Source of the DNA: an uncultured Bacilli bacterium
GTDB taxonomy: Bacteria > Bacillota_I > Bacilli_A > RF39 > UBA660
DNA: 64,000 bases
Assembly: GCA_947623735.1 (NCBI GenBank)
Contig: CANQHE010000001.1
Span: forward strand, 18,687-82,686
Direction: 5' to 3'
A program made the position numbers and the translations under genes. This document shows positions 2,703 to 30,611 of the stretch, one piece after another (positions within the stretch are counted from its first letter, which is position 1; every line of letters starts with the position of its first letter). The notes under the pieces are model-generated. The model was not told the origin of the DNA, made no database searches, and worked only from the letters and a program-made list of their open reading frames with translations.

Positions 2703-2909
2703 TTATGGTTTTTCCCCGCTTTTTTCCCCATTTTCTAAATCTTGAACCCCTAAATGATATGACATCAATTCTTCTTTTATATCATTTTTAAGTGTATTAA
2801 GAAAATTTTTTTTATAGTTATTAATCATAAATCCTGTAAGCATAACTACAATAAACACTAAAAAAAATGCATAAACTAAATATATTGAAGCAAATCCTTT
2901 ACTTTTCAT
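2703..2909 (-). CDS. small membrane protein, candidate bacteriocin immunity protein
   Basis: 68 aa with one long TM (IYLVYAFFLVFIVVMLTGFMI), immediately downstream of the three-peptide array and its terminator. Function inferred from position only. Confidence 0.35.
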   Translation of the reverse strand: MKSKGFASIYLVYAFFLVFIVVMLTGFMINNYKKNFLNTLKNDIKEELMSYHLGVQDLENGEKSGEKP

Positions 2910-2934
2910 ATTCTTTTCTCCTATTTAAATTATA

Positions 2935-2964
2935 ACAAAAAAAGGGTTAATTTAAAACCCTTTC
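2935..2964 (-). terminator. rho-independent terminator closing the bacteriocin peptide array
   Basis: On the minus strand GAAAGGGTTttaaattAACCCTTT hairpin followed by a T run (TTTTTTG), directly after the TAA of peptide 3. Confidence 0.7.
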
Positions 2965-2971
2965 TATTAGT

Positions 2972-3127
2972 TTAGCAATAGTTTTTTGTTTTAGCGCGTC
3001 TAATAGAAGACCCAATACCTTTTCCAAAATCGATGATAGTAGTAAATACTTTTACTATCGCGGTAAGTAGCGCTGCACTAAAAGCACCACCATAAACCAC
3101 TAGTAATTCTTTATCTTCTAATTTCAT
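2972..3127 (-). CDS. double-glycine-leader bacteriocin prepeptide 3 (leader MKLEDKELLVVYGG; mature AFSAALLTAIVKVFTTIIDFGKGIGSSIRRAKTKNYC)
   Basis: Hand-translated 51-aa ORF missed by the ORF track because it is under 60 aa. Leader fits the LSxxELxxIxGG-type consensus. Mature peptide is cationic and amphipathic with a single C-terminal Cys. ATG overlaps the stop of peptide 2 (TAATG). Confidence 0.75.
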   Translation of the reverse strand: MKLEDKELLVVYGGAFSAALLTAIVKVFTTIIDFGKGIGSSIRRAKTKNYC

Positions 3128-3276
3128 TAGTTGCATTTATTTGGGTGAATATAACCATATATTACTGAAGCAACAAACACACCTACTGCTCCAATCCCAA
3201 ATAATCCTATCTTTAAAGCATTTATAAAACTACCACCATCAGCTGACATTAACTCATTAACTTCTAGTATTTTCAT
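3127..3276 (-). CDS. double-glycine-leader bacteriocin prepeptide 2 (leader MKILEVNELMSADGG; mature SFINALKIGLFGIGAVGVFVASVIYGYIHPNKCN)
   Basis: Hand-translated 49-aa ORF. GxxxG-type motifs (GLFGIGAVG) typical of class IIb two-peptide bacteriocins. Start overlaps the stop of peptide 1 (TAATG); its stop overlaps the start of peptide 3. Confidence 0.75.
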   Translation of the reverse strand: MKILEVNELMSADGGSFINALKIGLFGIGAVGVFVASVIYGYIHPNKCN

Positions 3277-3404
3277 TATCTTCTTCCTTTCACTAACTTA
3301 CAAAAATTTGCTATACTAATTACACTAATTAAAACATGAGTTAAAATTCCAATGAAAGAACCTCCCTCATAATTTAATAATTCTTCTTTTCTTAAAATCT
3401 CCAT
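3276..3404 (-). CDS. double-glycine-leader bacteriocin prepeptide 1 (leader MEILRKEELLNYEGG; mature SFIGILTHVLISVISIANFCKLVKGRR)
   Basis: Hand-translated 42-aa ORF starting 13 nt after an AAAGGAAGG RBS. Leader has E at -8 and hydrophobics at -4/-7/-12 before the GG. Confidence 0.7.
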   Translation of the reverse strand: MEILRKEELLNYEGGSFIGILTHVLISVISIANFCKLVKGRR

Positions 3405-3420
3405 ATTAAAACCTTCCTTT

Positions 3421-3828
3421 CTACCACATTAAATCCTTAACTTTTAATAGGAGGCTTTGTTTATTATAATAAAAAGTCAGAAAAACAATCTCATTCGAAT
3501 TAAGTGTTTTATCAATCTTTAATACCAAGGATTGATAACTTATCATATTTTCTTGGTCCACTTTCATTTCGCTATCAATAATTTCATATTTAACCTTTCT
3601 ATTATTAATTTTTAGAGCATCAATTTCTATATTACTGGGAATTACTGTATTAATAACACATTCTTTATCACAAGTAACATATCCTTTTCCCTGATAGTTA
3701 TCATAAACTTCCTTTTTCATCATATATCCTAGTATTATAAGCATAATTAAAAAACTTAATAAAATTATAATCCAAAATTTTCTTGGTTTTTGATTCAAAA
3801 GAACTAATTTATTATCAGTTAAATTCAT
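3421..3828 (-). CDS. membrane-anchored accessory protein of the bacteriocin export operon (possible short secretion accessory or immunity protein)
   Basis: 135 aa with N-terminal TM (FWIIILLSFLIMLIILGYMM) and a beta-rich C-terminal domain. Overlaps the ABC transporter stop (ATGA coupling). Confidence 0.4.
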   Translation of the reverse strand: MNLTDNKLVLLNQKPRKFWIIILLSFLIMLIILGYMMKKEVYDNYQGKGYVTCDKECVINTVIPSNIEIDALKINNRKVKYEIIDSEMKVDQENMISYQSLVLKIDKTLNSNEIVFLTFYYNKQSLLLKVKDLMW

Positions 3829-5882
3829 TCTGGTAAATCCTCCACCATAATCACATTTTTAAAGCAATCTTTCATATCTTTATGGGAAACATAAATTAAT
3901 ATTTTATCTTTATAATATTTCATAATTTTTTTAAGTATTGCTCTTTCCATTGTAATACTTACTTCACTTAATGCTTCATCAAGCATAATAACACTAGCTT
4001 TTTTAAGTAGAGCTCGAGCCAAAATAATTCTTTGTCTTTCCCCTCCACTTAAATTATTAATACTGGCATTAATAATTGTTTCATACCGGTTAGGTCTTTT
4101 ACTAACTATATCTTCAATTTCACAAATTTTAGTTACTTCAAGAAACTCTTCTTCCCGAATATTTCTAAAACAAATAATATTATCTCTAATTGTTCCTGTA
4201 AATAATCTTTCTTCCTGTCCTACATATAATATATCCCTTCTTATAGCTTCCAAACTGAAATCTTTTTCACTCTGATTGTTTAAAAGTATATTACCATCAT
4301 ATCCTTCAATAATTCGATAAATAAGTTTACAAACTGTACTTTTACCAGCTCCGCTTGGTCCATCAATTAAAACCTTGCTTTTACTATCAAGTTTAAAACT
4401 TACATCTTTTAACACTTTTTTATAAGTATTATAACTAAAACTTACCTTTTTAAATTCCAATTCTTCAATCTTTAAAGTTTTTAATCCCACATCCCGAGCT
4501 TCCTCTTTTATGGCTAAAAACTCACTCAATTTACTAAAAGAAGCCTTTAAATAATTATATTTTGGTATCAGTTCTAAAATTTCTTTTACAGGGTCAAATA
4601 AATAAAGAATAATACTATTAAACGTAACTAAATTTAGAACATCTAACTTTCCCTGATTTATTAAATAAAATCCCAAAGTCATGATAACAAAAAGACCCAT
4701 TTCATAAATAAAATCTTTCATCAAATCAATTCCATTAAGTAAACTTTGTAAATTAAAATTGCATCTTAATAACTTTATAAGTTTACTCTCTAACTTCTGA
4801 AAGAATGTATCTTCCATATTCAAATTTTTAATGCTGGTATTTTGTTCTATCATCTCAATTAGATTAGCATTAAACTCTGTTCCCACTTCGATATTATTCT
4901 TCACTTTCCGATATATAATCTTACTAAAAAGCAAGCCTATTCCTATATAAATACTTACTATTAAACAAAGCACTAAAAATAGTTTCGCATTTATAAAGTA
5001 TAACACCAACGCTGCTCCAATAAGCAACACCGTATTAAGAAGAACACTTGTGAATATTTCTGAAAGTAAATTTTTTACTTGTCCGAGTTCCTCTACCCTT
5101 GATACAATTTCTCCTGTCTCACGGTTTTGCATAAATTTTAAAGGGAGACCAAAAATATGCTTTAAAGTATCATCGTATACCGCAATATCTAAATTCTTAT
5201 TAAAATAATTTAAATAATAACTTCGCATGAATTTACAAATAATTTTTAGTAAAGTGAGAAAGAAAAATATCAAAACCATAAACTTTACTAATCCTAAATC
5301 TTCTCCTTTATTTAACATGGTAATAACTATTTGAAAATAAAAAGTCCCAATAATCGAAAAAATAATTAAAATTAATGTTATAAAACAAATAATAATAAAC
5401 TGTTTTCTATTACTTTTTAACAACTTGAGAAATAAATTATAAATAGATAGTTCTCTATCATATTTTATAATATTATTTACTGGCATAAACAAACCTAAAA
5501 TATTATCCCAAATTTGTAAAAACTCTTTTATTTTCATTTTAACTTTACCACGGGCTGGGTCCATTATATAAATATCATTATTACTAATTTTATATATAAC
5601 TACAAAATGATTTAAACCATTTTTTAAGACTACATGAGCTATCGCGGGTAAATAGATATTTTTATCATGAATATTATCCACTCTGACACCAGTTGCTTCA
5701 AACCCATATTTTACTGCGGCTTTTATGAGTTGATAAAGATTCGTGCCATTACTAGTAGTAATCGTATCATCTCTAATTTTATCTATTGGAACATAACCGC
5801 CATAATATTTTATAATCGACGCCAAAGAACAAGCTCCACAATCTGTAATATCATGTTGTCTTACAACTTCTACTTTTGCTAT
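3825..5882 (-). CDS. bacteriocin-processing ABC transporter with N-terminal C39 peptidase domain; apparent ATA initiation codon (first canonical start TTG at 5825 lies after the catalytic Cys)
   Basis: C-terminal ABC ATPase motifs GPSGAGKST, LSGGERQRIILARAL, IMLDEA; six TM helices. The in-frame extension upstream of the track's TTG start encodes IAKVEVVRQHDITDCGACSLASI, matching the C39 QxxDxxDCGxAC active site. The only stop upstream is TAA at 5886-5888, and GGGAGGG lies 7 nt before the ATA at 5882. Confidence 0.75.
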   Translation of the reverse strand: MAKVEVVRQHDITDCGACSLASIIKYYGGYVPIDKIRDDTITTSNGTNLYQLIKAAVKYGFEATGVRVDNIHDKNIYLPAIAHVVLKNGLNHFVVIYKISNNDIYIMDPARGKVKMKIKEFLQIWDNILGLFMPVNNIIKYDRELSIYNLFLKLLKSNRKQFIIICFITLILIIFSIIGTFYFQIVITMLNKGEDLGLVKFMVLIFFFLTLLKIICKFMRSYYLNYFNKNLDIAVYDDTLKHIFGLPLKFMQNRETGEIVSRVEELGQVKNLLSEIFTSVLLNTVLLIGAALVLYFINAKLFLVLCLIVSIYIGIGLLFSKIIYRKVKNNIEVGTEFNANLIEMIEQNTSIKNLNMEDTFFQKLESKLIKLLRCNFNLQSLLNGIDLMKDFIYEMGLFVIMTLGFYLINQGKLDVLNLVTFNSIILYLFDPVKEILELIPKYNYLKASFSKLSEFLAIKEEARDVGLKTLKIEELEFKKVSFSYNTYKKVLKDVSFKLDSKSKVLIDGPSGAGKSTVCKLIYRIIEGYDGNILLNNQSEKDFSLEAIRRDILYVGQEERLFTGTIRDNIICFRNIREEEFLEVTKICEIEDIVSKRPNRYETIINASINNLSGGERQRIILARALLKKASVIMLDEALSEVSITMERAILKKIMKYYKDKILIYVSHKDMKDCFKNVIMVEDLPE

Positions 5883-6042
5883 ATTTTATCCCTCCCTTCA
5901 CTTCTATTTATTACCGGTTTTTTTCCAATTTCCTTTATTTTTTTGCATTTTGGGTACTTTTTTTTACATTCCCGCCAAAATTCGACAAATTTCCCTATCT
6001 ATCTTGAGTATAATAGCAACCCAAAAGGAAGGGAAAAACTTT

Positions 6043-6489
6043 ATGAAAAATCCCAATATTTTAATAAATTTACGAATCAAACATAATAAAAGTCAGCAAT
6101 TTATAGCTAACCTTTTAGATGTAACTCTTAAAACTTATAAATATTATGAACTAAATATTTATCAAATGAAACTTAGTAAATTATCTATTTTAGCCACTTT
6201 TTACAATGTATCTTTAGATTATTTAACTGGTTTAAGTAAATTTAAAAATCCTAATCTTCCTTCCATTAATTATACAAAATTACAATATAATTTAATTTAC
6301 TATCGCATTTTTTATAATATTCCTAAAAAAGATTTAACAATTATTACTTATCACTCTCGTCCCACTATTGATAAATATGAAAAAACACCTACTTCTGTAA
6401 GTGTTCTCTATCTTTATCTTTATGCTAAACATTTTAACTTATCTCTTGATTACATGTGTGGTAGAACCACAAAAAAAGAAATACTTTAA
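6043..6489 (+). CDS. tandem-HTH XRE-family transcriptional regulator (paralog 1 of 4), divergent from the bacteriocin operon
   Basis: 149 aa from ATG at 6043 (RBS AAGGAAGGG). Two HTH_3-like halves, each ending in a SLDY(L/M)xG motif. Paralogous to 43042-43497, 45457-45906 and 53786-54232. Confidence 0.65.
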   Translation: MKNPNILINLRIKHNKSQQFIANLLDVTLKTYKYYELNIYQMKLSKLSILATFYNVSLDYLTGLSKFKNPNLPSINYTKLQYNLIYYRIFYNIPKKDLTIITYHSRPTIDKYEKTPTSVSVLYLYLYAKHFNLSLDYMCGRTTKKEIL

Positions 6490-8186: not shown

Positions 8187-9005
8187 TTAATCAATTACTA
8201 TACTATCATTATAATCTTGTTCAATCGTTTTTACAAGATAAGTAACATTTAAAAAACCACCTTTATCAATAAATAATGTATAATTTTCATCTTTATCTAA
8301 AGCTTTTAATGTTTCATCAATAAGAATAACCTCAACTTCTTCTTCCCCTTTTTCTATTTTTGTTTGTTTATTCTCTAATCTTTCTCTAATTTTAACTTTT
8401 ATATCTTCCATTGTTACTTCATAATTATCTAGTATATCTTTATTACTTAAAATTGTTCCGTTATTAATATCAATTACATAAGATTCCGCTTTAACAAACT
8501 CTTCCCCATCAAAACAATCAAAATCATATTTTAAACTTACTAAAGATGCATAATCTCTTGCAAAATATCTATCAAATCTTAAATAACTAGCTTTATATAT
8601 ATTATCATCTTTATATATAACTTTTTCTTGCTCTTCCTCACTTAAGTTTTGATCACTTAAAACTAAATATGTTTTTTCTAACTCTCCTACTTCATTATTT
8701 ATAGTATTCTCTATTGTTCTAGCATCACTACTATCAATATTTATCGCAACTTCTTTATAACTAATATCTCTATTACTACTCTTTATATTTTCATTTAAAA
8801 AATATATGTAATCTTTATCTTCCCTAATCTTTTTACTTTCATCTTTAGCTACTTCTTCATGAATCTTACTTTCAGGATCATCTTTTTTATTTTTACTCTC
8901 ATCATTAGTAAGCATAACTGTTAAGAAAAAACCACCTACGACTAAAAAAACGATAAAAAAGAAAAATAACATTGCATAAACTTTCCCATTTCTAACATCA
9001 TTCAT
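8187..9005 (-). CDS. membrane-anchored hypothetical protein
   Basis: 272 aa with N-terminal TM (AMLFFFFIVFLVVGGFFLTVML); no recognizable domain. Confidence 0.5.
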   Translation of the reverse strand: MNDVRNGKVYAMLFFFFIVFLVVGGFFLTVMLTNDESKNKKDDPESKIHEEVAKDESKKIREDKDYIYFLNENIKSSNRDISYKEVAINIDSSDARTIENTINNEVGELEKTYLVLSDQNLSEEEQEKVIYKDDNIYKASYLRFDRYFARDYASLVSLKYDFDCFDGEEFVKAESYVIDINNGTILSNKDILDNYEVTMEDIKVKIRERLENKQTKIEKGEEEVEVILIDETLKALDKDENYTLFIDKGGFLNVTYLVKTIEQDYNDSIVID

Positions 9006-9011
9006 AAACTT

Positions 9012-9596
9012 CTAACCTCCAGTTTGATATAACTTCATCATCGCTTTAATATTATTTATCTTAAGCCCCATTTTTAATTGGGTCCAATAATCTTCCGGTT
9101 TTATATTACCAATATTTATTGCTGTCTCATTATCATATGCTAAAACCTTACCATTTTTTACTATTAATAAAGCGGGAGCATATATATTCTGCTTTCCTGT
9201 ATCTAAAACCGGTAAATAAGAAGCCAGTCTAATCACAATACTTTGATATGTTGCATTAGCATTATCTCTATCTTCTTTAAAATCATAGTAATATACTTTT
9301 TCAATTTTAAGTTCTTGAGCCGCATCATTAATCATTTTGGCATAATATCCACTCCACTCATTCGCTGGATATCCCATAAATATTATCCCTGATCCATTCT
9401 TAAGTATTGTATATACTTCATTTGCATTTACATAACTAAAAACATTATCTTTACTTACTAATGAATAATCATGATCAAACTTTGTATTATCATCATTTGT
9501 TTTATCACTAAAATCTTTATTACCTACATAAATAAAAGCAATTATTATTAAAATAAATAATATACTCTGTAAAGTTCTTTTAATACCCTTATTCAT
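9012..9596 (-). CDS. hypothetical exported/membrane-anchored protein
   Basis: 194 aa with N-terminal TM or signal. Confidence 0.5.
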   Translation of the reverse strand: MNKGIKRTLQSILFILIIIAFIYVGNKDFSDKTNDDNTKFDHDYSLVSKDNVFSYVNANEVYTILKNGSGIIFMGYPANEWSGYYAKMINDAAQELKIEKVYYYDFKEDRDNANATYQSIVIRLASYLPVLDTGKQNIYAPALLIVKNGKVLAYDNETAINIGNIKPEDYWTQLKMGLKINNIKAMMKLYQTGG

Positions 9597-9674
9597 ATTT
9601 AAAACCTCTAAAGATATTATAACATTAATTATTCTTTATATTAAGTAAAACTAACTATTTTTGTTAAATAAGTG

Positions 9675-10184
9675 TCAAATACTTTTCTTTCTAATTTTTT
9701 TATAAGCATCACTTGTTGTATCTCCCTGAAGCATATAATTAATATATTCTTTTCTTAAATTAATAATATCTCTTTCCATAATATCAAAATAATCTCCTGG
9801 CAAATATATAACCATATTTTTTTCTTCAAATTCTATAGTTCCTCTTCTTCTAATATAAACATCTTGCATACAATCTAAACAAACATAATGCTTATAACTT
9901 CCAAGTAAATATGAAGAATCAACCCATTTCCCTTCTTCCCTAAAAGCATAACCTACAAAAAGATAAATATCATGATTACAATTATCTTGCATTACTCCAT
10001 TAAGTGTTCTTAAAAATTCTTGAGGTAAAGCCTGCTTTTTAGCATCAATTATTTCTTTTAAAGCAATATATTTTTTAACTACTTCATTTTGTTTTAATAA
10101 TTCTAACTCTTCTTTTTCTTTACTTAATTTTTCTCTTTCTTCTTTAGTTTCTGCTAAAAATAATTTTCTTTGTTCTTCTGTCAT
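9675..10184 (-). CDS. hypothetical cytoplasmic Cys-containing protein
   Basis: 169 aa with a coiled-coil N-terminus and a CNHD...CLDC cysteine cluster. Confidence 0.5.
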   Translation of the reverse strand: MTEEQRKLFLAETKEEREKLSKEKEELELLKQNEVVKKYIALKEIIDAKKQALPQEFLRTLNGVMQDNCNHDIYLFVGYAFREEGKWVDSSYLLGSYKHYVCLDCMQDVYIRRRGTIEFEEKNMVIYLPGDYFDIMERDIINLRKEYINYMLQGDTTSDAYKKIRKKSI

Positions 10185-13155: not shown

Positions 13156-14004
13156 TTATCTTGCTTGTCTTTTAATTAGTTTGGCATGTAATACTACTTT
13201 TTCTTGATCATTATAACAAGTCGATAAAGTAAGTATTTTATCTCCAGCTTGGACAGTTGTTTTAAAATCATATATACTTCTACCCTTTAAAGTATCTAAA
13301 AACTTTTGTTGAGCTTCATCTGTTCCAAAATTAGTTGTTAAATAATAAGTTTCCGTTTTAATTTTATATACCGAAAATACTTGCCATAATGTATTTTCAG
13401 CTTCCGTAGATAAGTTAACTACATAATTATCAGTATTTTCATACCAATTATTTTTAACAATATTTTTAAGCGAACCAAACATTGTTGTATCCATTCTTCC
13501 ATGAGCATATATAATAGTATTAGCATCTAAATCTTTAATATTATTGCGATAATCCATAAATACCCATCCAGCCCCATTAATTGTTTTATTAAAAGATCTA
13601 TTTAAATAATAACTATTATCTTCAGCTTGGACTACAGGATAATTAATAGTGGTTCCATTAACTTTTAAATATGCAACCGTATCACTATTTAAAGCCTTTA
13701 GCTCGTTAAAATCCACACTATATAAAGGAAGTTTAATATATTTCCAGTAATCATCTTCTACTGAAGCATCTGGCGGATTTACAAGTTCATCTTTATCATC
13801 AGCCGGTATTTCTTCTACTTTAATTTCTCCTAAATCCTCAATTTGTTCTCTTGTTTCTTTATTATCTTTACTCCAAAGGAATATATGTAAAGAAGAATAT
13901 ATAAGGGCTCCTAAACTAATTAAAGCAACAACTATCCATACCCAAGATTTAAATCTAAGTTTTTTCTTTTTTGGTTTATTACTTTTATTTTTTTTATCAC
14001 TCAT
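13156..14004 (-). CDS. srtB: class B sortase
   Basis: 282 aa with N-terminal signal anchor, catalytic TLSTC motif near the C-terminus and a conserved His (IIYAHGR). Sits at the 3' end of the array of sorting-signal proteins. Confidence 0.8.
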   Translation of the reverse strand: MSDKKNKSNKPKKKKLRFKSWVWIVVALISLGALIYSSLHIFLWSKDNKETREQIEDLGEIKVEEIPADDKDELVNPPDASVEDDYWKYIKLPLYSVDFNELKALNSDTVAYLKVNGTTINYPVVQAEDNSYYLNRSFNKTINGAGWVFMDYRNNIKDLDANTIIYAHGRMDTTMFGSLKNIVKNNWYENTDNYVVNLSTEAENTLWQVFSVYKIKTETYYLTTNFGTDEAQQKFLDTLKGRSIYDFKTTVQAGDKILTLSTCYNDQEKVVLHAKLIKRQAR

Positions 14005-14100
14005 CTTGTTGATTCCTCCCTAAAAGGTACTAATATTATATCATATTTTCTATCTTAAAGATATTCTTTTTACTATATTTTTATCTTAAACTTAAACTAA

Positions 14101-14126
14101 AAAAGCGATCAACTCGCTTTTTAATA
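14101..14126. terminator. bidirectional intrinsic terminator between adhesin paralog 1 and srtB
   Basis: AAAAAGCGAtcaacTCGCTTTTT hairpin flanked by A and T runs. Confidence 0.6.
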
Positions 14127-14133
14127 AATTATT

Positions 14134-15837
14134 TTATTCTCTTACAAATTTCTTTCTAAGAGCAAGAACGATACCACCTAAACTTACAGCACCAATACCA
14201 ACATAAGTTAGAATATTATCACCAGTCTCTGGACTTACTAAAACTAATTGTAATTCCATACCATCAGTAATTTCTGTATCAAGGCTAAGTTCTTTACCAT
14301 CTTTATCTAAGAATTTCTCTACATCATATACATCTTTTATATTTTTCTTATAATCTGCTAAAGTTGTTCCTTTAGTAACAACATCTTCATAACCAGAATT
14401 ATCAATTGTAACTATAAAAGTTACTAAATCTTTAGCATCAATTAAGAATTGTAAAGCATTTTCAATATCACTTGTTGCTTTATTTAAAGTAGCAACTGCA
14501 TCATCTATTTCTGCTTGACTTTTATATTCTCCTTCTTCAATTTTAGAATATTTTTCAAATATTTCTAATAATTCTTGAAGAGCTCTAATTTCAGCAATAT
14601 TAAGATTTTCATCGTCATCATATTCTGCAGTTTTTTCTGTCACTTCGGCCAATGCTTTTTCTAAAGCACTACTTGCTTTCTCTAATTCACTATAATTTAA
14701 TACTTCGGCTTTTGAGTTTTCAGCAAGTAATGATCTATCTATTTCACTAGCAAAAGCACCACCTTTAATAGAATTTTTAAACGCATTAGCAGTATTATTT
14801 TCAATAGCTAATGAGCCATTTTTTCCTTCAAAATAACCACCAGTTATCTCAAAACTATTTACAGCGGTTTCAGTGGCATCAGCCTTAGTTTCAAATACAG
14901 CAACACCATTTTCACTATAAACTTCTGTTCCTTCACCTATAGTGATTTCAATCTTTTTATCATATGTATCATTAGCAGTTATACTTATACCTGCTCCAGT
15001 TGCTGTCGGATAACCAGATCTTTCTGTAGGGTTTTCTACATAAGCACCCATACCAGTAATTATCGCATTTTTAATATTAAATTTACCAGACTTAATACCT
15101 ATACCTTCTCTACCAGAGATTTCACCACCAGTTATATTCCATTTTGCATAACCAGCTGCATAAATTCCTTGACCACCATTAGCTTTAGCTTTTATTAAAG
15201 CTCCTTCAAATATGTTAATTTCTGGCGCATTTTCTCCATCTTGTTTAACATTTCCATTTACTGTTAAAGCATCACTATTAAATGGATGATCAATAGTTCC
15301 TTTAACATTTAAGGTAACTCCATTAGCTTTTGTTGGATCAGCCTTTCCCCAAATTGCAACTGTACCTTTTACAGTAGCTCCAGCATTAATATTAACTATT
15401 GTCTCTTTACTAGTATCGTCTGAACCATAAATAGTAAAAGTTGAAACATTATCACCGGTCTTTGTTTCTAAAATAGCACCTTCATCAAGTGTTACTTTAC
15501 TACCAGCTTGAGCCACTATAATAATACTTCTATCACTTCTTGCTAAAGTACCATTACTTACAGTTAAGCTAGCATTATCAGAAACAGTGATTTTACTTTT
15601 TAATTCTACTGTTTTACCGCCTAAATCTAAAGTGATATTTTTCGTAACAGTAATATCTTCTGTACCAGCAGTAATAGTTCCTTCGCCTACTGTACAAGTC
15701 TTGTCACCATCACTAGCAGTAAGACAACTTTTAAAAGTTTCCCAAGATGTAATCTCATCGGCACTTACCATTCCAGTAAATCCAAAAGTTGCAATAGCCA
15801 TAACCATAAACCCCATTATTCTTTTGAGATTCTTCAT
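14134..15837 (-). CDS. sortase-anchored beta-helix surface protein, paralog 1 (signal peptide, PbH1-like repeats, ubiquitin-like C-terminal domain, SPETGDN sorting signal)
   Basis: True start is MKNLKRIMGF at 15837 (RBS AGGAGGGAG); the track's upstream extension to 15933 reads through the promoter. Repeated NITGG.I.G.EGIG.KSG motifs. C-terminus SPETGDNILTYVGIGAVSLGGIVLALRKKFVRE is a sorting motif plus TM plus basic tail. Confidence 0.8.
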   Translation of the reverse strand: MKNLKRIMGFMVMAIATFGFTGMVSADEITSWETFKSCLTASDGDKTCTVGEGTITAGTEDITVTKNITLDLGGKTVELKSKITVSDNASLTVSNGTLARSDRSIIIVAQAGSKVTLDEGAILETKTGDNVSTFTIYGSDDTSKETIVNINAGATVKGTVAIWGKADPTKANGVTLNVKGTIDHPFNSDALTVNGNVKQDGENAPEINIFEGALIKAKANGGQGIYAAGYAKWNITGGEISGREGIGIKSGKFNIKNAIITGMGAYVENPTERSGYPTATGAGISITANDTYDKKIEITIGEGTEVYSENGVAVFETKADATETAVNSFEITGGYFEGKNGSLAIENNTANAFKNSIKGGAFASEIDRSLLAENSKAEVLNYSELEKASSALEKALAEVTEKTAEYDDDENLNIAEIRALQELLEIFEKYSKIEEGEYKSQAEIDDAVATLNKATSDIENALQFLIDAKDLVTFIVTIDNSGYEDVVTKGTTLADYKKNIKDVYDVEKFLDKDGKELSLDTEITDGMELQLVLVSPETGDNILTYVGIGAVSLGGIVLALRKKFVRE

Positions 15838-15859
15838 AATCTCCCTCCTTCTAACAAAG

Positions 15860-15890
15860 ATTATAACATAATACCCCCCCCCCACGTCAA
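15860..15890 (-). promoter_or_regulatory. sigma-A-like promoter with a G10 homopolymer in the spacer (candidate phase-variation switch) for paralog 1
   Basis: Minus strand reads TTGACG-T-G10-TATTATGT-TATAAT (extended TGn -10) with a 19-nt spacer. The C10 run on the plus strand is 15874-15883, ~25 nt upstream of the RBS. Confidence 0.65.
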
Positions 15891-15985
15891 TATATGCTAT
15901 TAACCTTTTTACAATTTTACGTCTAAATTCCAAAAAAAAGAAGCGATGAAATTTAATTCATCACTTCCATAAAAAATTTAATTAA

Positions 15986-17650
15986 TTAGTTTCTTGCATA
16001 TCTTTTCTTTAAAGCTATACCTAAGCCTAAAGTTCCAACAGCAGCTACACCAGCATAAGTTAAGATATTATCACCAGTTTCTGGACTAATAACAATTGCT
16101 TCAAAATACATACCTTCAGTAATTTCTGTATCAAGACTAAGTTCTTTTCCGTCTTTATCTACAAACTTTTCAATATCATAGTCATCTTTTAGAAGTTTCT
16201 TATAATCTCCTAAAGTCATACCTTTCTCAAGTTCTATTGAAATTTCTTCATCATCTATTACTAATGTAAATGTAACAAGATCTTTTGCTTCATTAACTAA
16301 TTTTATGGCATTGCTTAGTTCTTCAGTAGATTTAATTGTTGCTTCTGTTGCTTCATCAATAGCAGCTTGAGTAGTTAATAAATCACCAGCACCAAGCCCA
16401 TAATTACTTAATATTTTCTCTAGATTTTTTAATGCTTTAGTTTGCGCCGCATTTAATTTTTTATCTTGTAAACTTTCTGCTAATTTGTGTCCCTCTTCTA
16501 AAGTTTTAGAAAATTCCTCACTAGCCTCATTTAGTTTATCAAAATTTAAAACTTCAGCTTTAGAATTTGCCGCAAGTAATGATTCGTCTATTTGTGATGT
16601 AAAAGCTCCTCCGGTAATTGAGTTTTTAAAAGCTTCTTTATCTTTAGAAATAATATTTAAAGAACCTTTTGCACCTTCAAAATAACCATCACTTATTTCA
16701 AATTCTTTAACTGCTGTATCTTCTATTCCCGTAGGTCCTTCATAAATAGCATAAGCATTCGTACTATATACTTCTGTATCACCACTTATAGAGATTTCTA
16801 CATCTCCAGCATAAGCTTCATTAGTTGTAATACTTATAGCTGATCCAGTTGCTGTAACCTTTCCAGACTCTTCAACTGGATTTGGCACATATTCTCCGTT
16901 TCCATATATATATCCTCCAGTAATATTAAATTTACCAGATTTAATACCTATACCTTCATTTCCTGAGATCATTCCACCTTCAATATTCCAAGTACCATAT
17001 CCAGCGGCATATATACCTTGAACATTAGAAGAAATAATAGCGGTATCATAAATATTTACTACTGGTCCATTAGTAGATATCCCAACATTACCATTAATTG
17101 TAACACCATCACTGTTATTACCATTAATTGTACCACGTATATTTAAAACTACCCCATCAGCTTTACCATTGTTGTCAGCAATACCAACTGTACCATTTAC
17201 AGTTGCATTAGCATTAATGTTAACTGTAGTCTTATCATTACCACTATCAGCGCCAACAATTCCGATAACTGTTACATTATCATCAATACCTGTTAAACTA
17301 ACATTTTCAAGTGTTAATGTTGTTCCCTTTCTAACTGTAACAATTGTACTTCTATCATCTCTATGAAGATTACCATTTTTAATTGTTAAATTTCCAGTAT
17401 CATCAAGTATAATTCTGTTAAGTAACTCAAAATCAATTTTATTTAAATCAAGTGTAATATTACCTTTAACAGTTAACTCTTCATTTACTGCTACAACTGT
17501 CGAATCCAAAGTACAACTTTTTGTACCACTATCTTGCATACAAGTTTTAAAAGTATCCCAAGCAGTAGTATCAGCTTTTGCTACACTCACAAATCCTAAA
17601 GATGCAAGAGTAACACCAAATAACCCCATCATTCTTTTGAGATTCTTCAT
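15986..17650 (-). CDS. sortase-anchored beta-helix surface protein, paralog 2
   Basis: True start MKNLKRMMGL at 17650. Same architecture as paralog 1; C-terminus SPETGDNILTYAGVAAVGTLGLGIALKKRYARN. Confidence 0.8.
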   Translation of the reverse strand: MKNLKRMMGLFGVTLASLGFVSVAKADTTAWDTFKTCMQDSGTKSCTLDSTVVAVNEELTVKGNITLDLNKIDFELLNRIILDDTGNLTIKNGNLHRDDRSTIVTVRKGTTLTLENVSLTGIDDNVTVIGIVGADSGNDKTTVNINANATVNGTVGIADNNGKADGVVLNIRGTINGNNSDGVTINGNVGISTNGPVVNIYDTAIISSNVQGIYAAGYGTWNIEGGMISGNEGIGIKSGKFNITGGYIYGNGEYVPNPVEESGKVTATGSAISITTNEAYAGDVEISISGDTEVYSTNAYAIYEGPTGIEDTAVKEFEISDGYFEGAKGSLNIISKDKEAFKNSITGGAFTSQIDESLLAANSKAEVLNFDKLNEASEEFSKTLEEGHKLAESLQDKKLNAAQTKALKNLEKILSNYGLGAGDLLTTQAAIDEATEATIKSTEELSNAIKLVNEAKDLVTFTLVIDDEEISIELEKGMTLGDYKKLLKDDYDIEKFVDKDGKELSLDTEITEGMYFEAIVISPETGDNILTYAGVAAVGTLGLGIALKKRYARN

Positions 17651-17672
17651 AATCTCCCTCCTTCTAACAAAG

Positions 17673-17703
17673 ATTATAGCATAATACCCCCCCCCCAGGT
17701 CAA
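17673..17703 (-). promoter_or_regulatory. promoter with G10 tract in the spacer for paralog 2
   Basis: TTGACC-T-G10-TATTATGC-TATAAT, 19-nt spacer. C10 run at 17687-17696. Confidence 0.65.
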
Positions 17704-17798
17704 TATATGCTATTAATCTTTTTACAATTTTACGTCTAAACATCAAAAAAAAGAAGTAATGAAAATTTATTCATCACTTCCAGAAAAAACTTAATTAA

Positions 17799-19580
17799 TT
17801 AGTTTCTTGCATATCTTTTCTTTAAAGCAAATCCAAGACCTAAAACACTTATTGCTCCAACACCCACAAATGTTAAGATATTATCTCCCGTTTCTGGACT
17901 ACTAAGAACAACATTAACTTCAGTATCTTCAGTATACTTCTTATCTAAATCTGTAATTTCTTTACCATCTTTATCTAAGAATTTTTCAATATCATAATCA
18001 CCTTTAACAAGCTTTTTAAGATTGTTTAAAGTAGCTTTTTCTTTTTCTAACTCAAAATCTTCTTTAATGGTTTTTTTACCATCTTTAATAACTAAAGTGA
18101 AAGTAACTCTATTTCCAGCTGCTACTAAATCATCAAATGCAAAGTTAGTTTGTTCAACTAAGTCATTTATCAAAGCTGTATAATCATCAATAGCTTTTTG
18201 AGTTGTAGGTCTTTCATCAAAAGATATATTACTAAAAGCTTCAGCTAATCCTTTAATTTTTTCAACTACTTTTTTCTCAGCTTTATTAAGAACAGACTCA
18301 TCACCATAATCTTTAATCTTATCAAGTTCATCTGCTTTACCTTCTAAAGCTAAGAAACTTTCATAAGCTTTTTCTAACTCGCTATAATCCAAAATTTCAG
18401 CTTTAGAATTTGTTGCAAGTAAAGCTTCATCTACATTACCATTATAAGTACCACCAGTTACTTTATTCTTGATATTCGCATCATCTTTAGATTGGATATT
18501 AAGTGCATCTTTATCTACAGCACTTTCAAAGTAACCATCACTAATATTTAAACCTTTAACAGCAGTACCAGTACTACCATCAGTTTTATATTCCATAACG
18601 GCATTTCCTTGTTTACTTACTAATTTACCACCTGAAATAGATACTGTGACTCTACCATTTCCATAACTATTAGTTACACTTAAAGCAGCACCAGTATTTT
18701 CAGCAGCACTATCCTCTTTTCTTGGAGTTCCATTATATTCTCCATTACCAGTTATATCTCCACCAGTAATATTAATATTACCAGCTTTAGCAGATATACC
18801 TTCAGAACCAGTAATAGTTCCACCAGTTATATTCCATTTTGCATAACCTGCGGCATATATAGCTGGACCATCAGAAGTAATTGTAGCTCCTTCACCAACA
18901 TTAAATTCTGGAGCTTTATCATCATCATCAGTCTTTAAATTACCATGAGCATATAAGCCAAATCTAGTAGCTTTTATTGTCCCATTAACGGTTACATTTA
19001 CACCTTTTGCTCCTTCGTCATTAAATACAGCAATACCAACTTCACCAATTAAAGTTGCATTTTCTCCAATTGTTACACTTGTTGTACTTGTTCCTGTTGC
19101 GGCCTTATCACCCCAAACTGAAATGACTTGAACATCATCAGTTTCTGTTGTTTTTAAAGTTCCCTTAACTACATCAACAGTTGAACCTACTCTTACATTT
19201 ACTATGGCAATACCACTACTTTCAATAGAACCATTACCAACACTACTAGTATCAGTAATCGTAAACTTTGCTGTACTATTATTCCCATCAGTATCTTGAC
19301 CAACTGAAATACGATTTTTCAAAGTTAACTTATGACCATTTAAATCCAAAGTAATATTATTTTTAACAACAATATCTGTACTACTAGGACTTGGTTCGCC
19401 ATCTGTTTCACTAAAATCGCCATTAAGTTTACAAACCTTATTTCCAGTTTCATCTTCTAAACAAGTTTTTAAATCAGCAAAACTACTAATTAAGGAATCT
19501 TCTGCTCTAACAGTCATCGTAAATGCAAATGCCATGACTGTTATAACCAATAACCCACTTATTCTTTTGAGATTCTTCAT
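17799..19580 (-). CDS. sortase-anchored beta-helix surface protein, paralog 3
   Basis: 593 aa starting MKNLKRISGLLVITVMAFAFTMTVRA; C-terminus SPETGDNILTFVGVGAISVLGLGFALKKRYARN. Confidence 0.8.
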   Translation of the reverse strand: MKNLKRISGLLVITVMAFAFTMTVRAEDSLISSFADLKTCLEDETGNKVCKLNGDFSETDGEPSPSSTDIVVKNNITLDLNGHKLTLKNRISVGQDTDGNNSTAKFTITDTSSVGNGSIESSGIAIVNVRVGSTVDVVKGTLKTTETDDVQVISVWGDKAATGTSTTSVTIGENATLIGEVGIAVFNDEGAKGVNVTVNGTIKATRFGLYAHGNLKTDDDDKAPEFNVGEGATITSDGPAIYAAGYAKWNITGGTITGSEGISAKAGNINITGGDITGNGEYNGTPRKEDSAAENTGAALSVTNSYGNGRVTVSISGGKLVSKQGNAVMEYKTDGSTGTAVKGLNISDGYFESAVDKDALNIQSKDDANIKNKVTGGTYNGNVDEALLATNSKAEILDYSELEKAYESFLALEGKADELDKIKDYGDESVLNKAEKKVVEKIKGLAEAFSNISFDERPTTQKAIDDYTALINDLVEQTNFAFDDLVAAGNRVTFTLVIKDGKKTIKEDFELEKEKATLNNLKKLVKGDYDIEKFLDKDGKEITDLDKKYTEDTEVNVVLSSPETGDNILTFVGVGAISVLGLGFALKKRYARN

Positions 19581-19602
19581 AATCTCCCTCCTTCTACAAA
19601 AG

Positions 19603-19633
19603 ATTATAACATGATACCCCCCCCCCAGGTCAA
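19603..19633 (-). promoter_or_regulatory. promoter with G10 tract in the spacer for paralog 3
   Basis: TTGACC-T-G10-TATCATGT-TATAAT, 19-nt spacer. C10 run at 19617-19626. Confidence 0.65.
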
Positions 19634-19677
19634 TATATAGCCATCAAATTTACACATATCTTATTTAATTTTACTAT

Positions 19678-20211
19678 TTAAAACTTTTTAGTCCTTTTTA
19701 AAATTATAAAAATGCCTCCACTAATTAATATTAAAATTACTACAAGATATCCATATGATTTACTACTAACTTCTTCATATATTCCTTTATTTTCTTCTAA
19801 ACATTCTTTAGTATTTTCTTTATTTTCTATTTTAGCTACTAAATCACAATAATTACTTTCTTTTTCATAAGCATCTATAGCTTTCATTATTTTATCTTTT
19901 ACTTCATCATCATATCCAACAAAATAATTAGAACCAATTATAACAAGAGGTAATTTATTTTTCTTAATATCTAATGTTTTTCTAACATCATTAAATAAAT
20001 CTGGATAATCTTCAATATTAATATATTCTACATTTATAAATTTATCTTTTTTATATTCTTCAAGCCAATTTTTTTCAGTTTTACATTCTTCACATTCTTC
20101 TTCATAAAAAACATTAATTTTAATATTATATTCTGAATTCGTTATAACAGCATAGGAAGTTATCGGAAAACATAAAATCATAATTAATAATAACATAAAT
20201 AAAACTTTTTT
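19678..20211 (-). CDS. membrane-anchored thioredoxin/glutaredoxin-like protein, last gene of the giant-protein operon
   Basis: Start MKKVLFML at 20211 (RBS GGGGAGG). Signal peptide, CEEC redox-like motif, C-terminal TM YLVVILILISGGIFIILKRTKKF. Confidence 0.5.
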   Translation of the reverse strand, partial: KKVLFMLLLIMILCFPITSYAVITNSEYNIKINVFYEEECEECKTEKNWLEEYKKDKFINVEYINIEDYPDLFNDVRKTLDIKKNKLPLVIIGSNYFVGYDDEVKDKIMKAIDAYEKESNYCDLVAKIENKENTKECLEENKGIYEEVSSKSYGYLVVILILISGGIFIILKRTKKF

Positions 20212-20284
20212 CATTATTTCCTCCCCAATATTGTTTAAAGGTGTGATTATCAATTATCACACCTTTAAAACTTGTTTTTAATTT

Positions 20285-23200
20285 TTACTGTGTGTCCGCA
20301 ATAACATTAATGCCTTTTTCTAATTCTTCTGTTTCTGTATCATCTTTAATATATTTTATATCAACTAATGATGGATCTTTCGTTTTTACAGTTATATTAC
20401 TAAAATCATCACTATCATTAGAATAATTAACTCCAATTTTCATCGATTGTGATACTATTGTAGCCGAATTATTTGCGACACTTTCTAATCTTAAATTATA
20501 TTTATTACTACTTAATGTATTTGCAGCATTTCTTATTTCAGCATTTGTATCAAAAGCCTTCATGATTACATCACTATTTTTGCCACTACTTTGGGCATCA
20601 TCTTTAGCAAAAGTATTAAGATATAAATCTGTTCCAGACGCTACATTTCCATTAAGATAAACATAATTCTCTATTTTAGAAGCTTCAAATCTATTCCATC
20701 TTATATCACCAATTACTTTAGTACTATGACTAATTAAAATACCATACGTTGCATTTCCAGCCCCTATATTACTTACTTTAGAATCCCAAAGAGTAAATTT
20801 AGCTTTTTCCCCTGAAGTAATATTGACATTTATAATCGCATTACCATTTTCTGAATAATCACTACTATTTCCTTGAATATTTAATCTTTGGAAGAATATT
20901 TCATCAGCCGTAATATTAATTCCTTTAACTTTTAAAATAGATGTTTCTTTTTTATCTCCTATAATAGTCATTGATTTATTAATTGTTAATATTTTATCAC
21001 TTAGATCAATAGTAGAATTTTCATTTATGTATATTTCATCGACTTCAGGTTTTGCTAATGCTTTTTCAAATTGATCAGCATTAGAAACATGCTCAGCCCC
21101 TTCTTTTACACTAACACAAAATGCAGTATAATAAGTTGCATCGCCCGTCACATTTACTTGTTCTTTAACCGAAGCCGACATTTCACAACTTGTTCCCTCT
21201 CCAGAAGCTGTCTTCGTATCGTTATAATTTAAAGAGTAGCCCTTCAAATTATAAATATGACCCTTGTATTCTAATTTTTTCAAAGATGCAAATACTTCTC
21301 CTTCATCAGTTGGTGGTGTTACATTTGATCCATATATTGCATACCTTATGAATGAAGCTTTTGAACCAGCCTCAACATTTTGGAAAGTTATTTTATAAAT
21401 TTTAGAATTTTCTTCTTTATTATAATAATTATAGTAGTCATAATCTTCATCAAATGCTTTAGTATCTCCACGAGTTCCTTTTGTAGCCGGTGTTATTTTT
21501 TCTTTTGTTATTTTTTGAGCCTTTTTATTATCATTAATCGTTAAATTTACAACAGAATTATCATTTTTCGGAGTTTTAATTGCCGGCAAATTATAATTCT
21601 CATTATTCATAGTAAGTTTATCACCACTTACTGTACTTGTATCTTTTACTAAAATTCCAGCTTCAGTATTATCACTAACATCTAGACTACTAAATGTTAA
21701 TCCTCCCGCATTAGATACAACAATAGCTTCTTTAGCTCCCGTTAATTTAAGATTTTCCATACTAACACTTGGAGTTTTAATTGTAAAAATATTTGTTAAA
21801 TTTTTATCACTTTTTGCCGTAATAGTATATGCATCACCATTACTAGATATATTAACCGGATTATTTACCTCCAATGTATTTTCAACATCGAAGCTTTTCA
21901 TTATTTGAATTTTTTTAATACTTTTATTTGCTAAAGCCGCGGTTAATTCTGCTTCATTTTGAACAGGAGCAATATCTGTTTCAAACTTGAATGTATATTC
22001 TTTTGTTACCTCATCATTAAGTTTTACTGAATCATCAAGACTACCAATTATTAATTTAAACTCTTTATTTTCAACAGCCATTTTATTTAAAGTCATATTA
22101 CTTTCAGCTTCTTCGCCACCTAAAACTTTTTTAAATAATGCTTGTGCTCCAACTTGAATTTTTTCTTTTAAAGCTGAACCAATAGGATCTAAACTAGCTG
22201 TTTGCACTTCATAACTACTTGCATCCTTAGTAAATACTACCTTTTTGTCCCCGAAAAATAATGTGATATCTTTTATTTCTCCTCTTTGAAGAATATAAGC
22301 AATAGTACCAGGGATAGAAGTTCTATTCATATCACTTAATTTAGTAGTTGTATCTTTTACTTTAAATGTAATCGTATTGCCATCTTGATTAACTTCGAAA
22401 ATATCTGAAAAATCTGTTGAAAAATGACTATCTTTATTTTTCAAATCCTCAACTACATCAACTAAGAATTTATCTATATTTAATGTATAGTGAGCTTTCA
22501 AAGTAATATCTTCATCTTTATTTGTACTAGCAGATCCAAAAGCAAATTGAACACTTGAGCCTTTCTCCTTATCATACCAATAATCAAGACTATGATATTT
22601 ATAACTATCTAAACTTGGAGCTATTGAAGACTCTATAGTTTCTCCTTGATATACAATTTTAGCTTCAGATTGCACTGTTCCAGTAGACTCATCAAAATAT
22701 TCAAATATTACTTTATTTTCTGATAAGAAAGTAAATGTAGTATTTATAGTTATCTCTTCTGAAGGTAAAAATTCTTTATCGGCATTGCCATCATAATCTA
22801 TTTTATAATGAATACCTTGATTACCATCTTTCATTTTAAATAACACAATAATATATCCATTTTCATAATCAGTTGGTGATGGATGTTTTTCAACATAATT
22901 GCCTTCGCTATCTTTTAAACTGATAGTCCATTTATTATGATATTCTGCTGGTAAATCATCAATAGGAACTGTAATTTTTACAGGAACATAATATCCTTCA
23001 TCTTCACTAAATCCAGCTGCTGGATCTAAAGTTTGTTCCTTTACCGTACCAGTTAAACCATTATGATAGCTTCCAGTTTCTTCTTGCATTCCAGTTGAAT
23101 ATTTAACATCAACCTTACTAAAATCAAAATGCCAACTATTTTCTAATGTTTGCTTATCTATTTCATTTAATTCATTTTCTTTAACTGGTTCATAATCACT

Positions 23201-25276: not shown

Positions 25277-25290
25277 AATTCTACTCCTTT

Positions 25291-26886: not shown

Positions 26887-27050
26887 TTTATATACTTCCT
26901 TTCTAACTTGCTATTCAAAAAAAACATTTTAAACCTAGCTTCGTTTAAAATGTACAACAACTCCATTCTAACTCAACTCCTTTATTATAAAATTAACTCA
27001 TAACAAACAATATTAGATAACTATTTTTTATTTATTATTCTACTAAAAAA

Positions 27051-27081
27051 ATTATACCATATAACCCCCCCCCCAAGTCAA
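27051..27081 (-). promoter_or_regulatory. promoter with G10 tract in the spacer for the Big_2 / giant-protein / thioredoxin-like operon
   Basis: TTGACT-T-G10-TTATATGG-TATAAT, 19-nt spacer. C10 run at 27065-27074. Roughly 160-nt 5' UTR before the Big_2 gene. The paralog-5 terminator hairpin (AAAGAGAGGtttcaaaGCTTCTCTTTTTTT) lies just upstream at ~27100-27140. Confidence 0.6.
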
Positions 27082-27145
27082 TAAAAAATGTCACTTTTAA
27101 GCACAAAAAAAGAGAAGCTTTGAAACCTCTCTTTAGATCTTACTC

Positions 27146-28873: not shown

Positions 28874-28897
28874 AAATCTTTCCTCCTTCTACTAAAC

Positions 28898-28928
28898 ATT
28901 GTAACATAATACCCCCCCCCCACGTCAA
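28898..28928 (-). promoter_or_regulatory. promoter with G10 tract in the spacer for paralog 4
   Basis: TTGACG-T-G10-TATTATGT-TACAAT, 19-nt spacer. C10 run at 28912-28921. Confidence 0.65.
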
Positions 28929-28996
28929 TATCAAAGCCAAAGGTTTACAACAAAAAAGACAATCTTTAAATCAGATTGCCTTAATTTATTATTTTA

Positions 28997-30448: not shown

Positions 30449-30514
30449 AATATCATTCTTCCTTTCTAAAATTAATTGTTTGCTTTAAACAAAATTTTCT
30501 CCTTTCTTAAATCC

Positions 30515-30545
30515 ATTGTAACATAATACCCCCCCCCCACGTCAA
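30515..30545 (-). promoter_or_regulatory. promoter with G10 tract in the spacer for paralog 5
   Basis: TTGACG-T-G10-TATTATGT-TACAAT, 19-nt spacer. C10 run at 30529-30538. Confidence 0.65.
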
Positions 30546-30611
30546 TATTGAATCTAAAATTATACATCAAAAAAGACAACCTTTTAATTAGATTGCCTTA
30601 AATTAATTTTA

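Follow-up and report, generated by a model that had tools for sequence, protein, structure and literature searches.

A predicted export locus for double-glycine-leader peptides of the class II bacteriocin kind in uncultured low-GC Bacilli

What kind of system is encoded by the cluster of short genes that lies between the AI-2E permease gene and rpsU in a 64-kb stretch of DNA from an uncultured Bacilli bacterium (contig CANQHE010000001.1; the whole stretch is called the window here)? An original prediction, made from the letters alone, had described it as an unannotated three-peptide bacteriocin locus with an exporter, a candidate immunity protein and a divergent regulator. The answer reached here, held as probable though with reservations, is a chromosomal class II bacteriocin-type locus that is vertically inherited, evolves fast and belongs to a genus-level group of uncultured low-GC Bacilli. 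There is good support for reading it as an export system for double-glycine (GG) leader peptides of the class II bacteriocin kind, because its anatomy, its conservation and the selection acting on it all point that way, and it appears to be a recognisable, previously undescribed relative of the two-peptide bacteriocins. The gene structure, conservation, selection, domain content and catalytic residues described in the following were observed directly, beginning with the exporter-peptide operon (positions are those of the window; aa, amino acids; TM, transmembrane; ORF, open reading frame).

3825-5882, minus strand: PCAT exporter, 685 aa if started at the ATA at 5882-5880 (Pfam and PCAT1 alignment)
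3421-3828, minus strand: accessory protein, 135 aa, one TM segment, its start overlapping the stop of the ABC gene by 4 nt
3404-2972, minus strand: three prepeptide ORFs of 42, 49 and 51 aa, back to back
3276-3404, minus strand: peptide 1 precursor, 42 aa, leader MEILRKEELLNYEGG, mature part SFIGILTHVLISVISIANFCKLVKGRR of 27 aa
3127-3276, minus strand: peptide 2 precursor, 49 aa, leader MKILEVNELMSADGG, mature part SFINALKIGLFGIGAVGVFVASVIYGYIHPNKCN of 34 aa, hydrophobic
2972-3127, minus strand: peptide 3 precursor, 51 aa, leader MKLEDKELLVVYGG, mature part AFSAALLTAIVKVFTTIIDFGKGIGSSIRRAKTKNYC of 37 aa
2939-2965, minus strand: intrinsic terminator of the exporter-peptide operon, a hairpin followed by a T-run

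The three ORFs are present on the minus strand with the translations originally given, and their GG leaders are genuine. Such leaders usually comprise about 15-30 residues. A scan of all ORFs of 35-80 aa in the window for the leader pattern, in which positions -12, -7 and -4 are hydrophobic and GG comes next, matched these peptides only, with a mean of 0.05 matches in 20 shuffles, and the same leader pattern is kept in every compiled family member (12 for peptide 1, 17 for peptide 2, 14 for peptide 3). The mature window peptides are cationic, as had been claimed, with net charges of +4, +2 and +5, and have GRAVY values of 0.5-1.1 and one Cys each; a second in-frame ATG is possible for peptide 3 at 3136. 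The word “unannotated” holds for the ORF track of the original prediction but not for public assemblies, in which all three peptides and the proteins of 135 and 68 aa are called as genes, and where peptide 1 or peptide 3 is uncalled in some assemblies it is nonetheless present in the DNA. Among the compared contigs and lineages, which carry L numbers, peptide 1 of L019 has a GTG start (L019 7864) and was missed by the gene caller, as was peptide 3 in L023 and L035.

The arrangement of the three genes supports the claim that they are co-transcribed and tightly coupled, there being no space for independent promoters between them. At both junctions the stop and the next start share one base in TAATG, and the terminator-like hairpin and T-run that had been seen after the peptides are found at 2965-2939 of the minus strand. 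The ribosome-binding site of peptide 1 is strong, conserved and separate, and that of peptide 2 lies inside the last codons of peptide 1 in nine of nine lineages (3300-3276 in the window), which partly explains the Lys/Arg/Gly-rich tail of peptide 1 and places this basic tail under a dual constraint, as coding sequence and as translation signal. For peptide 3 no such site is present in any of the nine lineages, and it must therefore be translated by re-initiation after peptide 2, with which its gene overlaps or abuts in all nine; as a result of this coupling the synthesis of peptides 2 and 3 should be matched.

It is these two peptides that are the most constrained. The 17 sequences of peptide 2 share S-(V/I)-x-Y-G-(Y/F)-x-x-P-x-x-C with almost no variation; S37xxxG41 and C48 are present in 17/17, P45 is likewise invariant, and the Cys is located 1-4 residues from the end. 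In all 14 sequences of peptide 3, G35xxxG39, an RR pair and a single Cys (Cys51 in the window) are invariant, the Cys being the C-terminal residue or no more than four residues from it. The GxxxG-like motifs of the original prediction are therefore real and invariant in peptides 2 and 3, which are two different, adjacent peptide genes of one operon with a GxxxG or GxxxG-like motif in each, and which consequently look like a class IIb pair. Peptide 1 has orthologs in 12 lineages that keep the leader (ME.L....LL.C.GG), with a poorly conserved mature part. The claim of one conserved Cys per peptide thus stands for peptides 2 and 3 but fails for peptide 1, in whose mature region a Cys is found in only six of the 12 lineages and at shifting positions.

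The families are small and distant from curated models. An exhaustive HMMER scan of 1.84 billion representatives returned seven matches for peptide 2, and in Pfam and NCBIfam no match of the three peptides reaches a curated cut-off. The only curated models touched by the family are those of lactococcin G alpha and beta, lactobin A/cerein 7B and the generic bacteriocin leader, all below cut-off. Peptide 3 scores 17.7 bits against the lactococcin G-beta/enterocin 1071B model NF038034, for which the cut-off is 37, and six of seven members of its family give weak, sub-threshold matches to this model; the best E-values of family members are 6.4e-4 for NF038034 and 1.1e-6 for the lactobin A/cerein 7B model TIGR03949, again all sub-threshold. 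Profiles of peptides 2 and 3 found nothing significant among the sequences of the PDB, the one suggestive row being the leader of the PCAT1 substrate (E=0.71). A role of peptide 1 as a pheromone was considered and set aside: one family member has a faint match to the EntF induction factor (E=0.089), and the locus has neither a kinase nor a TPR-type receptor.

At least 13 related lineages share one gene order; they were reached by three independent routes (the families of peptide 2, peptide 3 and the 135-aa protein) and through one JGI metagenome contig. In every lineage reached it reads frr, AI-2E permease, divergent HTH regulator, C39-ABC exporter, protein of ~135 aa, peptides 1-2-3, terminator/promoter, protein of ~56-73 aa, rpsU and yqeY. 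A less biased route, independent of these genes, started from an S21 variant in the same 90% cluster as that of the window, and 10 of 10 contigs, from different sequencing runs, carried the locus upstream of rpsU. Nei-Gojobori estimates of dN/dS between lineages are 0.15-0.60 for peptide 1, 0.16-0.37 for peptide 2, 0.09-0.24 for peptide 3, 0.09-0.25 for the 68-aa protein and 0.20-0.45 for the 135-aa protein; values of 0.09-0.60 mean that the peptides are real genes and that all of the small genes are under purifying selection. Identity between lineages is 57-59% for the exporter, 43-44% for the regulator, 36-41% for the 135-aa protein, 36-67% for the peptides and 54-62% for the 68-aa protein, as against 79-81% for the flanking RRF, 81-82% for AI-2E, 94-98% for S21 and 75-79% for YqeY. 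Proteins with 36-67% identity are thus set between flanks with 75-98%, a divergence two to four times faster, and by this measure an island appears to extend from the regulator through the 68-aa gene. A phage or plasmid origin was rejected, since no relatives were found in viral contigs or plasmids and the GC content of the island (26%) is near that of its flanks (28-29%).

The exporter and the small membrane accessory protein that had been placed upstream of the peptides are both there. In the exporter, Pfam identifies Peptidase_C39 (PF03412, E=2.3e-27), ABC_membrane and ABC_tran domains, and with the ATA at 5882 taken as its start the protein can be aligned over its whole length with PCAT1 (4RY2, E=2.4e-101) and ComA (8HF4, E=6.6e-84). 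The PCAT1 alignment pairs RQHDITDCGACSL with RQYDLTDCGAACL, NHFVVIY with AHFVVIY and IMDPARG with VADPGKG, and shows the Gln/Cys/His/Asp set to be present, including Cys15 (codon 5840-5838), His92 and Asp108; Walker A lies at 508, the signature motif at 611, and Walker B is present. The N-terminal C39 domain with the catalytic triad of a cognate exporter is hence found, with the Cys included only if translation starts at ATA 5882. NCBIfam scores fall below cut-off (381 versus 524 bits for TIGR01193 and 347 versus 500 for the mycoplasma Mbov_0121 family), and the protein is a divergent member of the peptidase-ABC family. When a genome collection was scanned with the exporter, nothing closer than remote ABC ATPase matches from unrelated phyla came back, and an exact look-up of the protein yielded no record.

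The start of this gene deserves attention. The first ATG, GTG or TTG in the open frame (TTG 5825), at which the public gene calls begin, comes only after the codon of the catalytic Cys, so that these calls drop the active-site residue, and after the upstream TAA the sole plausible initiator is the ATA at 5882-5880, located 7 nt past the ribosome-binding site GAAGGGAGGG. This ATA aligns with the ATG of L023 and L026; ATG is used also in L014 and L015, and TTG in L019 (L019 5394). As it is seen in three independent assemblies of the species, the ATA is not a sequencing error, and export in this species is, as a consequence, probably low: initiation at AUA in E. coli is roughly 1-2% of that at AUG, with a range of 0.02-3% (10.1101/063800). 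Two further contigs of the same species carry deletions, namely one of 7 bp in L003 (equivalent to window ~5195-5189), which splits the exporter into 218 and 435 aa, and one of 21 bp in L002 (equivalent to 5972-5952) beside a conserved TGTCGAA element in the regulatory region.

These lesions raise the possibility that in the window's species the locus is decaying or has become a “cheater”, in which the peptides and their protection are kept and export is crippled. Such an account, compatible with the bacteriocin reading for the genus, has a precedent in the pneumococcal blpA gene, which is frameshifted in ~60% of strains (PMC7595303), but is considered doubtful, given that the 685-codon frame is otherwise undamaged and keeps every motif and that the L002 and L003 contigs have only ~3x coverage. 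Moreover, the ATA follows a very strong ribosome-binding site, a 10-nt block identical in the exporter and rpsU (S21) genes and with similar flanks (5899-5890 and 2642-2633, minus strand), so that low-level initiation is plausible, and the TTG start of L019 suggests that weak starts may normally hold exporter levels low.

The protein of 135 aa gives no match in Pfam or NCBIfam even at E=10, and a word-based homology search returned only the protein itself. A profile search recovers ~20 clusters, mostly of 122-144 residues, none with a Pfam domain; the few shorter ones are probably fragmentary. An AlphaFold2 model built with 17 family members (mean pLDDT 84) has a short N-terminal helix, a TM helix at 18-38 and a six-strand beta domain, for which a Foldseek search of the PDB found nothing significant (none below E=0.009). 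The membrane anchor and beta-barrel of a membrane-fusion protein (MFP) are thus seen in the model, but the lipoyl domain, the alpha-helical hairpin and an HlyD sequence match are absent, the domain and the hairpin because 135 aa are too short to hold them. On this moderate fold evidence the protein may be a minimal relative of HlyD/ComB-type accessories, reduced to the anchor and the barrel, and a partner made in stoichiometric amounts would be in keeping with the 4-nt overlap between its gene and that of the exporter.

Several observations weigh against the bacteriocin reading. The sub-threshold matches to bacteriocin models are probably driven by the leader; Pfam and NCBIfam scans found no recognisable immunity family, the candidate being pilin-like and located outside the operon, and no quorum-sensing two-component system; bacteriocins are usually patchy, and a fixed site occupied in all lineages is not typical of them; and in this species, with its ATA start and the frameshift of one strain, production may be weak or lost. 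Some of these points favour a different function, in which the GG peptides would not be antimicrobial but exported signalling, biofilm or envelope peptides with a conserved lineage-specific role, comparable to pneumococcal BriC and VP1 or cyanobacterial EbfG. The occupation of one chromosomal site in every lineage examined and the missing immunity family and two-component system would suit such peptides, and non-killing GG peptides are documented (PMC7595303; PMC4997328). This function is nevertheless judged unlikely: the mature peptides are hydrophobic, of TM length and cationic with invariant GxxxG-type motifs, the weak model matches are only to class IIb bacteriocins, the island has no receptor gene, and its divergence at two to four times the rate of the flanks is what antagonistic co-evolution predicts.

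The candidate for protection of the producer is the small gene beyond the terminator, which had been proposed as an immunity gene and is present as a one-TM ORF.

2929-2956, minus strand: extended -10 promoter of the 68-aa gene, TTTAAA-16-TGTTATAAT, overlapping the terminator tail
2703-2909, minus strand: 68-aa one-TM protein with a pilin-like N-terminus (MKSKGFASIYLVY...), candidate immunity protein

A hairpin and T-run follow peptide 3 in seven of seven lineages compared, with stem sequences that differ in some, and a TATAAT-like -10 box stands directly past the terminator in all seven, preceded by an extended TG in six. With terminator and promoter both conserved, the 68-aa gene is transcribed on its own. 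It follows peptide 3 in every lineage (56-73 aa), has no match at a curated cut-off in Pfam or NCBIfam and is best conserved at the N-terminus, MKKGFASMY(M/L/I)VYSFFL, which resembles a prepilin signal but lacks Glu at +5. The window protein, with KG|FASIY, has Tyr at this position and no N_methyl match, in place of the G|F-x-x-x-E and hydrophobic helix of a prepilin. The sole lineage that does match is L014, whose ortholog MKKGFALLETIIAI carries the prepilin motif in canonical form (Pfam N_methyl, E=0.018). When L014 is compared with L015, the other island genes are 68-86% identical, and in the small gene (L014 7692-7826 versus L015 6318-6521) the DNA similarity breaks past the shared first codons and resumes at MINN.KKN after the TM segment, as if the segment for the TM helix had been replaced.

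An alternative is that the 68-aa protein has nothing to do with the peptides and is a minor protein of the pseudopilin type, with immunity provided by the 135-aa protein or by nothing at all. The separate promoter behind the terminator, the conserved KKGFA N-terminus and the canonical G|FALLE of L014 speak for this, as does the suggestion in a class IIb review that accessory proteins may add to immunity (PMC2850506). The proposal is nonetheless rather improbable, in that +5 is Tyr or Met and not Glu in all lineages but one, a length of 56-73 aa leaves the protein without a globular pilin domain, and a motif search of the window and the compared loci found no other pilin-motif ORFs or com genes. 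The best evidence that the gene is a member of the island is that its identity follows the island's rate and not that of the flanks. While the 68-aa gene lies outside the peptide operon, past the conserved terminator and with its own promoter, the 135-aa gene lies inside it but resembles an export partner. The best guess is that the 68-aa protein is the immunity factor: CibC is an example of a small TM peptide with this role, the gene diversifies along with the island, and its place is invariably behind peptide 3.

The obligate three-component bacteriocin of the original prediction, with disulfides drawn from one Cys of each peptide, draws on the single Cys of each window peptide and on the tight coupling of the three genes in every lineage, but is very improbable, since a mature-region Cys is absent from peptide 1 in six of 12 lineages, the mature sequence of this peptide is far more variable than those of peptides 2 and 3, and with three thiols no closed set of pairwise disulfides is possible. 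A three-way disulfide being unlikely, as the Cys of peptide 1 is not conserved, an intermolecular link is reasonable for the pair of peptides 2 and 3, not for all three. Nor are three GG-peptide genes in a row unusual in themselves, and tandem triple GG-peptide genes are not unusual in streptococcal blp-type loci.

Expression of the system would be governed by the region that separates the exporter from the divergent gene.

6043-6489, plus strand: divergent regulator, 148 aa, two XRE-type helix-turn-helix (HTH) domains in one chain (Pfam HTH_3, E=1.4e-11)
5883-6042: shared regulatory region, 160 bp, with invariant columns in a seven-lineage alignment and putative block functions
5987-5981: TGTCGAA, invariant, with a degenerate G(A/T)CGAA-like second copy ~10 bp downstream
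6009-6015, plus strand: -10 box TATAAT of the regulator, invariant across seven lineages
5935-5928 and 5915-5906, minus strand: promoter-like blocks AAGGAAAT and GGTAATAAAT (seven-lineage alignment)
5899-5890, minus strand: ribosome-binding site of the exporter, GAAGGGAGGG

The tandem-HTH architecture was correctly predicted, two HTH_3 stretches being found in the Pfam scan, and the likely start of the gene is the ATG at 6043 and not the TTG at 5950, as gene callers give 148-151 aa in every lineage. The direct repeat formed by TGTCGAA and its degenerate copy would be a suitable target for a protein that has both HTH domains in a single chain. On the exporter side, all seven lineages have AAGGA, a spacing of 16-17 bp, G(T/C)AATA..TA and then the ribosome-binding site. 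The AAAGGAAAT ... GGTAATAAAT pair upstream of the exporter is unlike a -35/-10 pair of sigma-70; its AAAGGAAAT block resembles a -35 box of the sigma-H type, but the downstream block does not match GAAT. In the window the AAGGA...G[TC]AATA motif has one further match, inside a gene, which does not indicate a wider regulon, and the operator pattern has no further match.

For the bacteriocin reading we infer that cleavage, export, killing, immunity and regulation would proceed as follows. One transcript, initiated upstream of the exporter and ended at the terminator, would encode the peptidase-ABC exporter, its mini membrane-fusion-like partner of 135 aa and the three prepeptides, which would be cut after Gly-Gly by the C39 domain, allowing mature peptides of 27, 34 and 37 residues to be pumped out. 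Peptides 2 and 3 would form the core two-peptide pair, packing in the target membrane via their SxxxG and GxxxG motifs and produced in matched amounts, as peptide 3 would be made only by re-initiation after peptide 2. Their invariant C-terminal Cys may join the two in a disulfide or may supply a thiol required for activity, and peptide 1, an additional GG peptide that varies more, would act as a third component or as a toxin in its own right. Immunity would most likely be conferred by the 68-aa membrane protein, expressed from a constitutive-looking promoter of its own, and the tandem-HTH protein would control the divergent promoters via the conserved TGTCGAA repeat. Because of the ATA start, export would probably be low in this species.

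The departures from the textbook layout are a third coupled peptide, an accessory of ~135 aa reduced to the barrel, an invariant single Cys in each peptide of the core pair, an immunity candidate that is pilin-like and separately transcribed, a tandem-HTH regulator, and fixed residence in the core genome together with fast divergence. Taken jointly, they could describe a species-specific kin-discrimination device of the core genome, as opposed to an accessory weapon, in which a covalent Cys heterodimer of peptides 2 and 3 is exported by a PCAT with a barrel-only MFP, and protection is given by a mini-pilin-like protein possibly processed by a prepilin peptidase; this full combination is quite improbable. 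We know of no disulfide-linked class IIb bacteriocin pair of that kind.

The host has 28.8% GC, and the same window encodes a sortase and large surface proteins. At 13156-32663 of the minus strand the sortase gene heads a run of large ORFs (483-1663 aa) that probably form a block for surface proteins anchored to the cell wall; of four of these ORFs compared with Pfam, three gave no match and one has Big_2 and Listeria-Bacteroides repeats. Between frr and tsf (8187-10184, minus strand), ORFs of 272, 194 and 169 aa without Pfam match are conserved in synteny, in sister lineages too.

If active, the peptides would constitute three new families, none of which is in Pfam or NCBIfam, and would bring with them a new, very small type of exporter partner for class II bacteriocins from an uncultured gut lineage. 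The single-site, fast-diverging locus offers a natural series of matched variants of peptides, protection gene and exporter for the study of specificity and co-evolution, and the invariant single Cys residues pose the simple question of a disulfide-linked pair or a thiol-dependent activity. The current understanding of such systems is unchanged by these findings.

Among known systems, the accessory proteins of the HlyD/MFP type (AcrA, MacA, EmrA, Spr0693) differ from the 135-aa protein, which has about one third of their usual length and is without the lipoyl domain, the coiled-coil hairpin and a Pfam HlyD match. PCAT1 functions without an accessory, and ComA with the long ComB. With PCAT1 of Clostridium thermocellum (4RY2) and ComA (8HF4) the exporter shares full-length homology, the same Cys-His-Asp triad and the ABC motifs; it differs in being translationally coupled to a protein modelled as a TM helix with a beta-barrel. 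Garvicin KS is likewise composed of three small peptides of related size that are encoded together and act as a single bacteriocin, but these are leaderless (PMC6412029) and bypass C39 processing, while all three peptides of the present locus have GG leaders.

The accessory BlpB/ComB is a full-length protein of ~450 aa, compared with 135 aa here. The pneumococcal blp locus (BlpAB and the bacteriocin-immunity region), together with the competence-induced CibAB/CibC, resembles the present one as a syntenic chromosomal locus with peptides and immunity genes that differ from strain to strain and an often disrupted exporter; the blpA disruption recalls the exporter frameshift of L003 and the regulatory deletion of L002. 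CibAB/CibC is a two-peptide killer with a small transmembrane immunity peptide, and blpIJ, blpMN and blpK are confirmed active blp products (PMC7595303). The blp locus differs in its BlpC/BlpHR pheromone circuit, none of which is visible here, and variation in the present locus is between species and not in the presence or absence of cassettes.

From the class IIb bacteriocins (lactococcin G, enterocin 1071, plantaricin EF/JK), for which GxxxG-type motifs (AxxxA and SxxxS count as GxxxG-like) in both partners and adjacent paired genes are hallmarks (PMC2850506), the locus departs in lacking significant sequence similarity (NF038034 and TIGR03949 below cut-off, PDB searches empty), in its third coupled GG peptide, in the invariant unpaired Cys near the C-terminus of each member of the pair, in an immunity candidate outside the operon and in a tandem-HTH regulator instead of a peptide-sensing two-component system. 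It nevertheless shares with them adjacent genes for two different GG-leader peptides of ~30-40 residues, both cationic and helical-hydrophobic and both with a GxxxG or GxxxG-like motif, and a dedicated C39 ABC exporter with a small accessory, just as in lactococcin G the genes for a dedicated C39 ABC exporter and an accessory protein stand in the same operon (PMC2850506).

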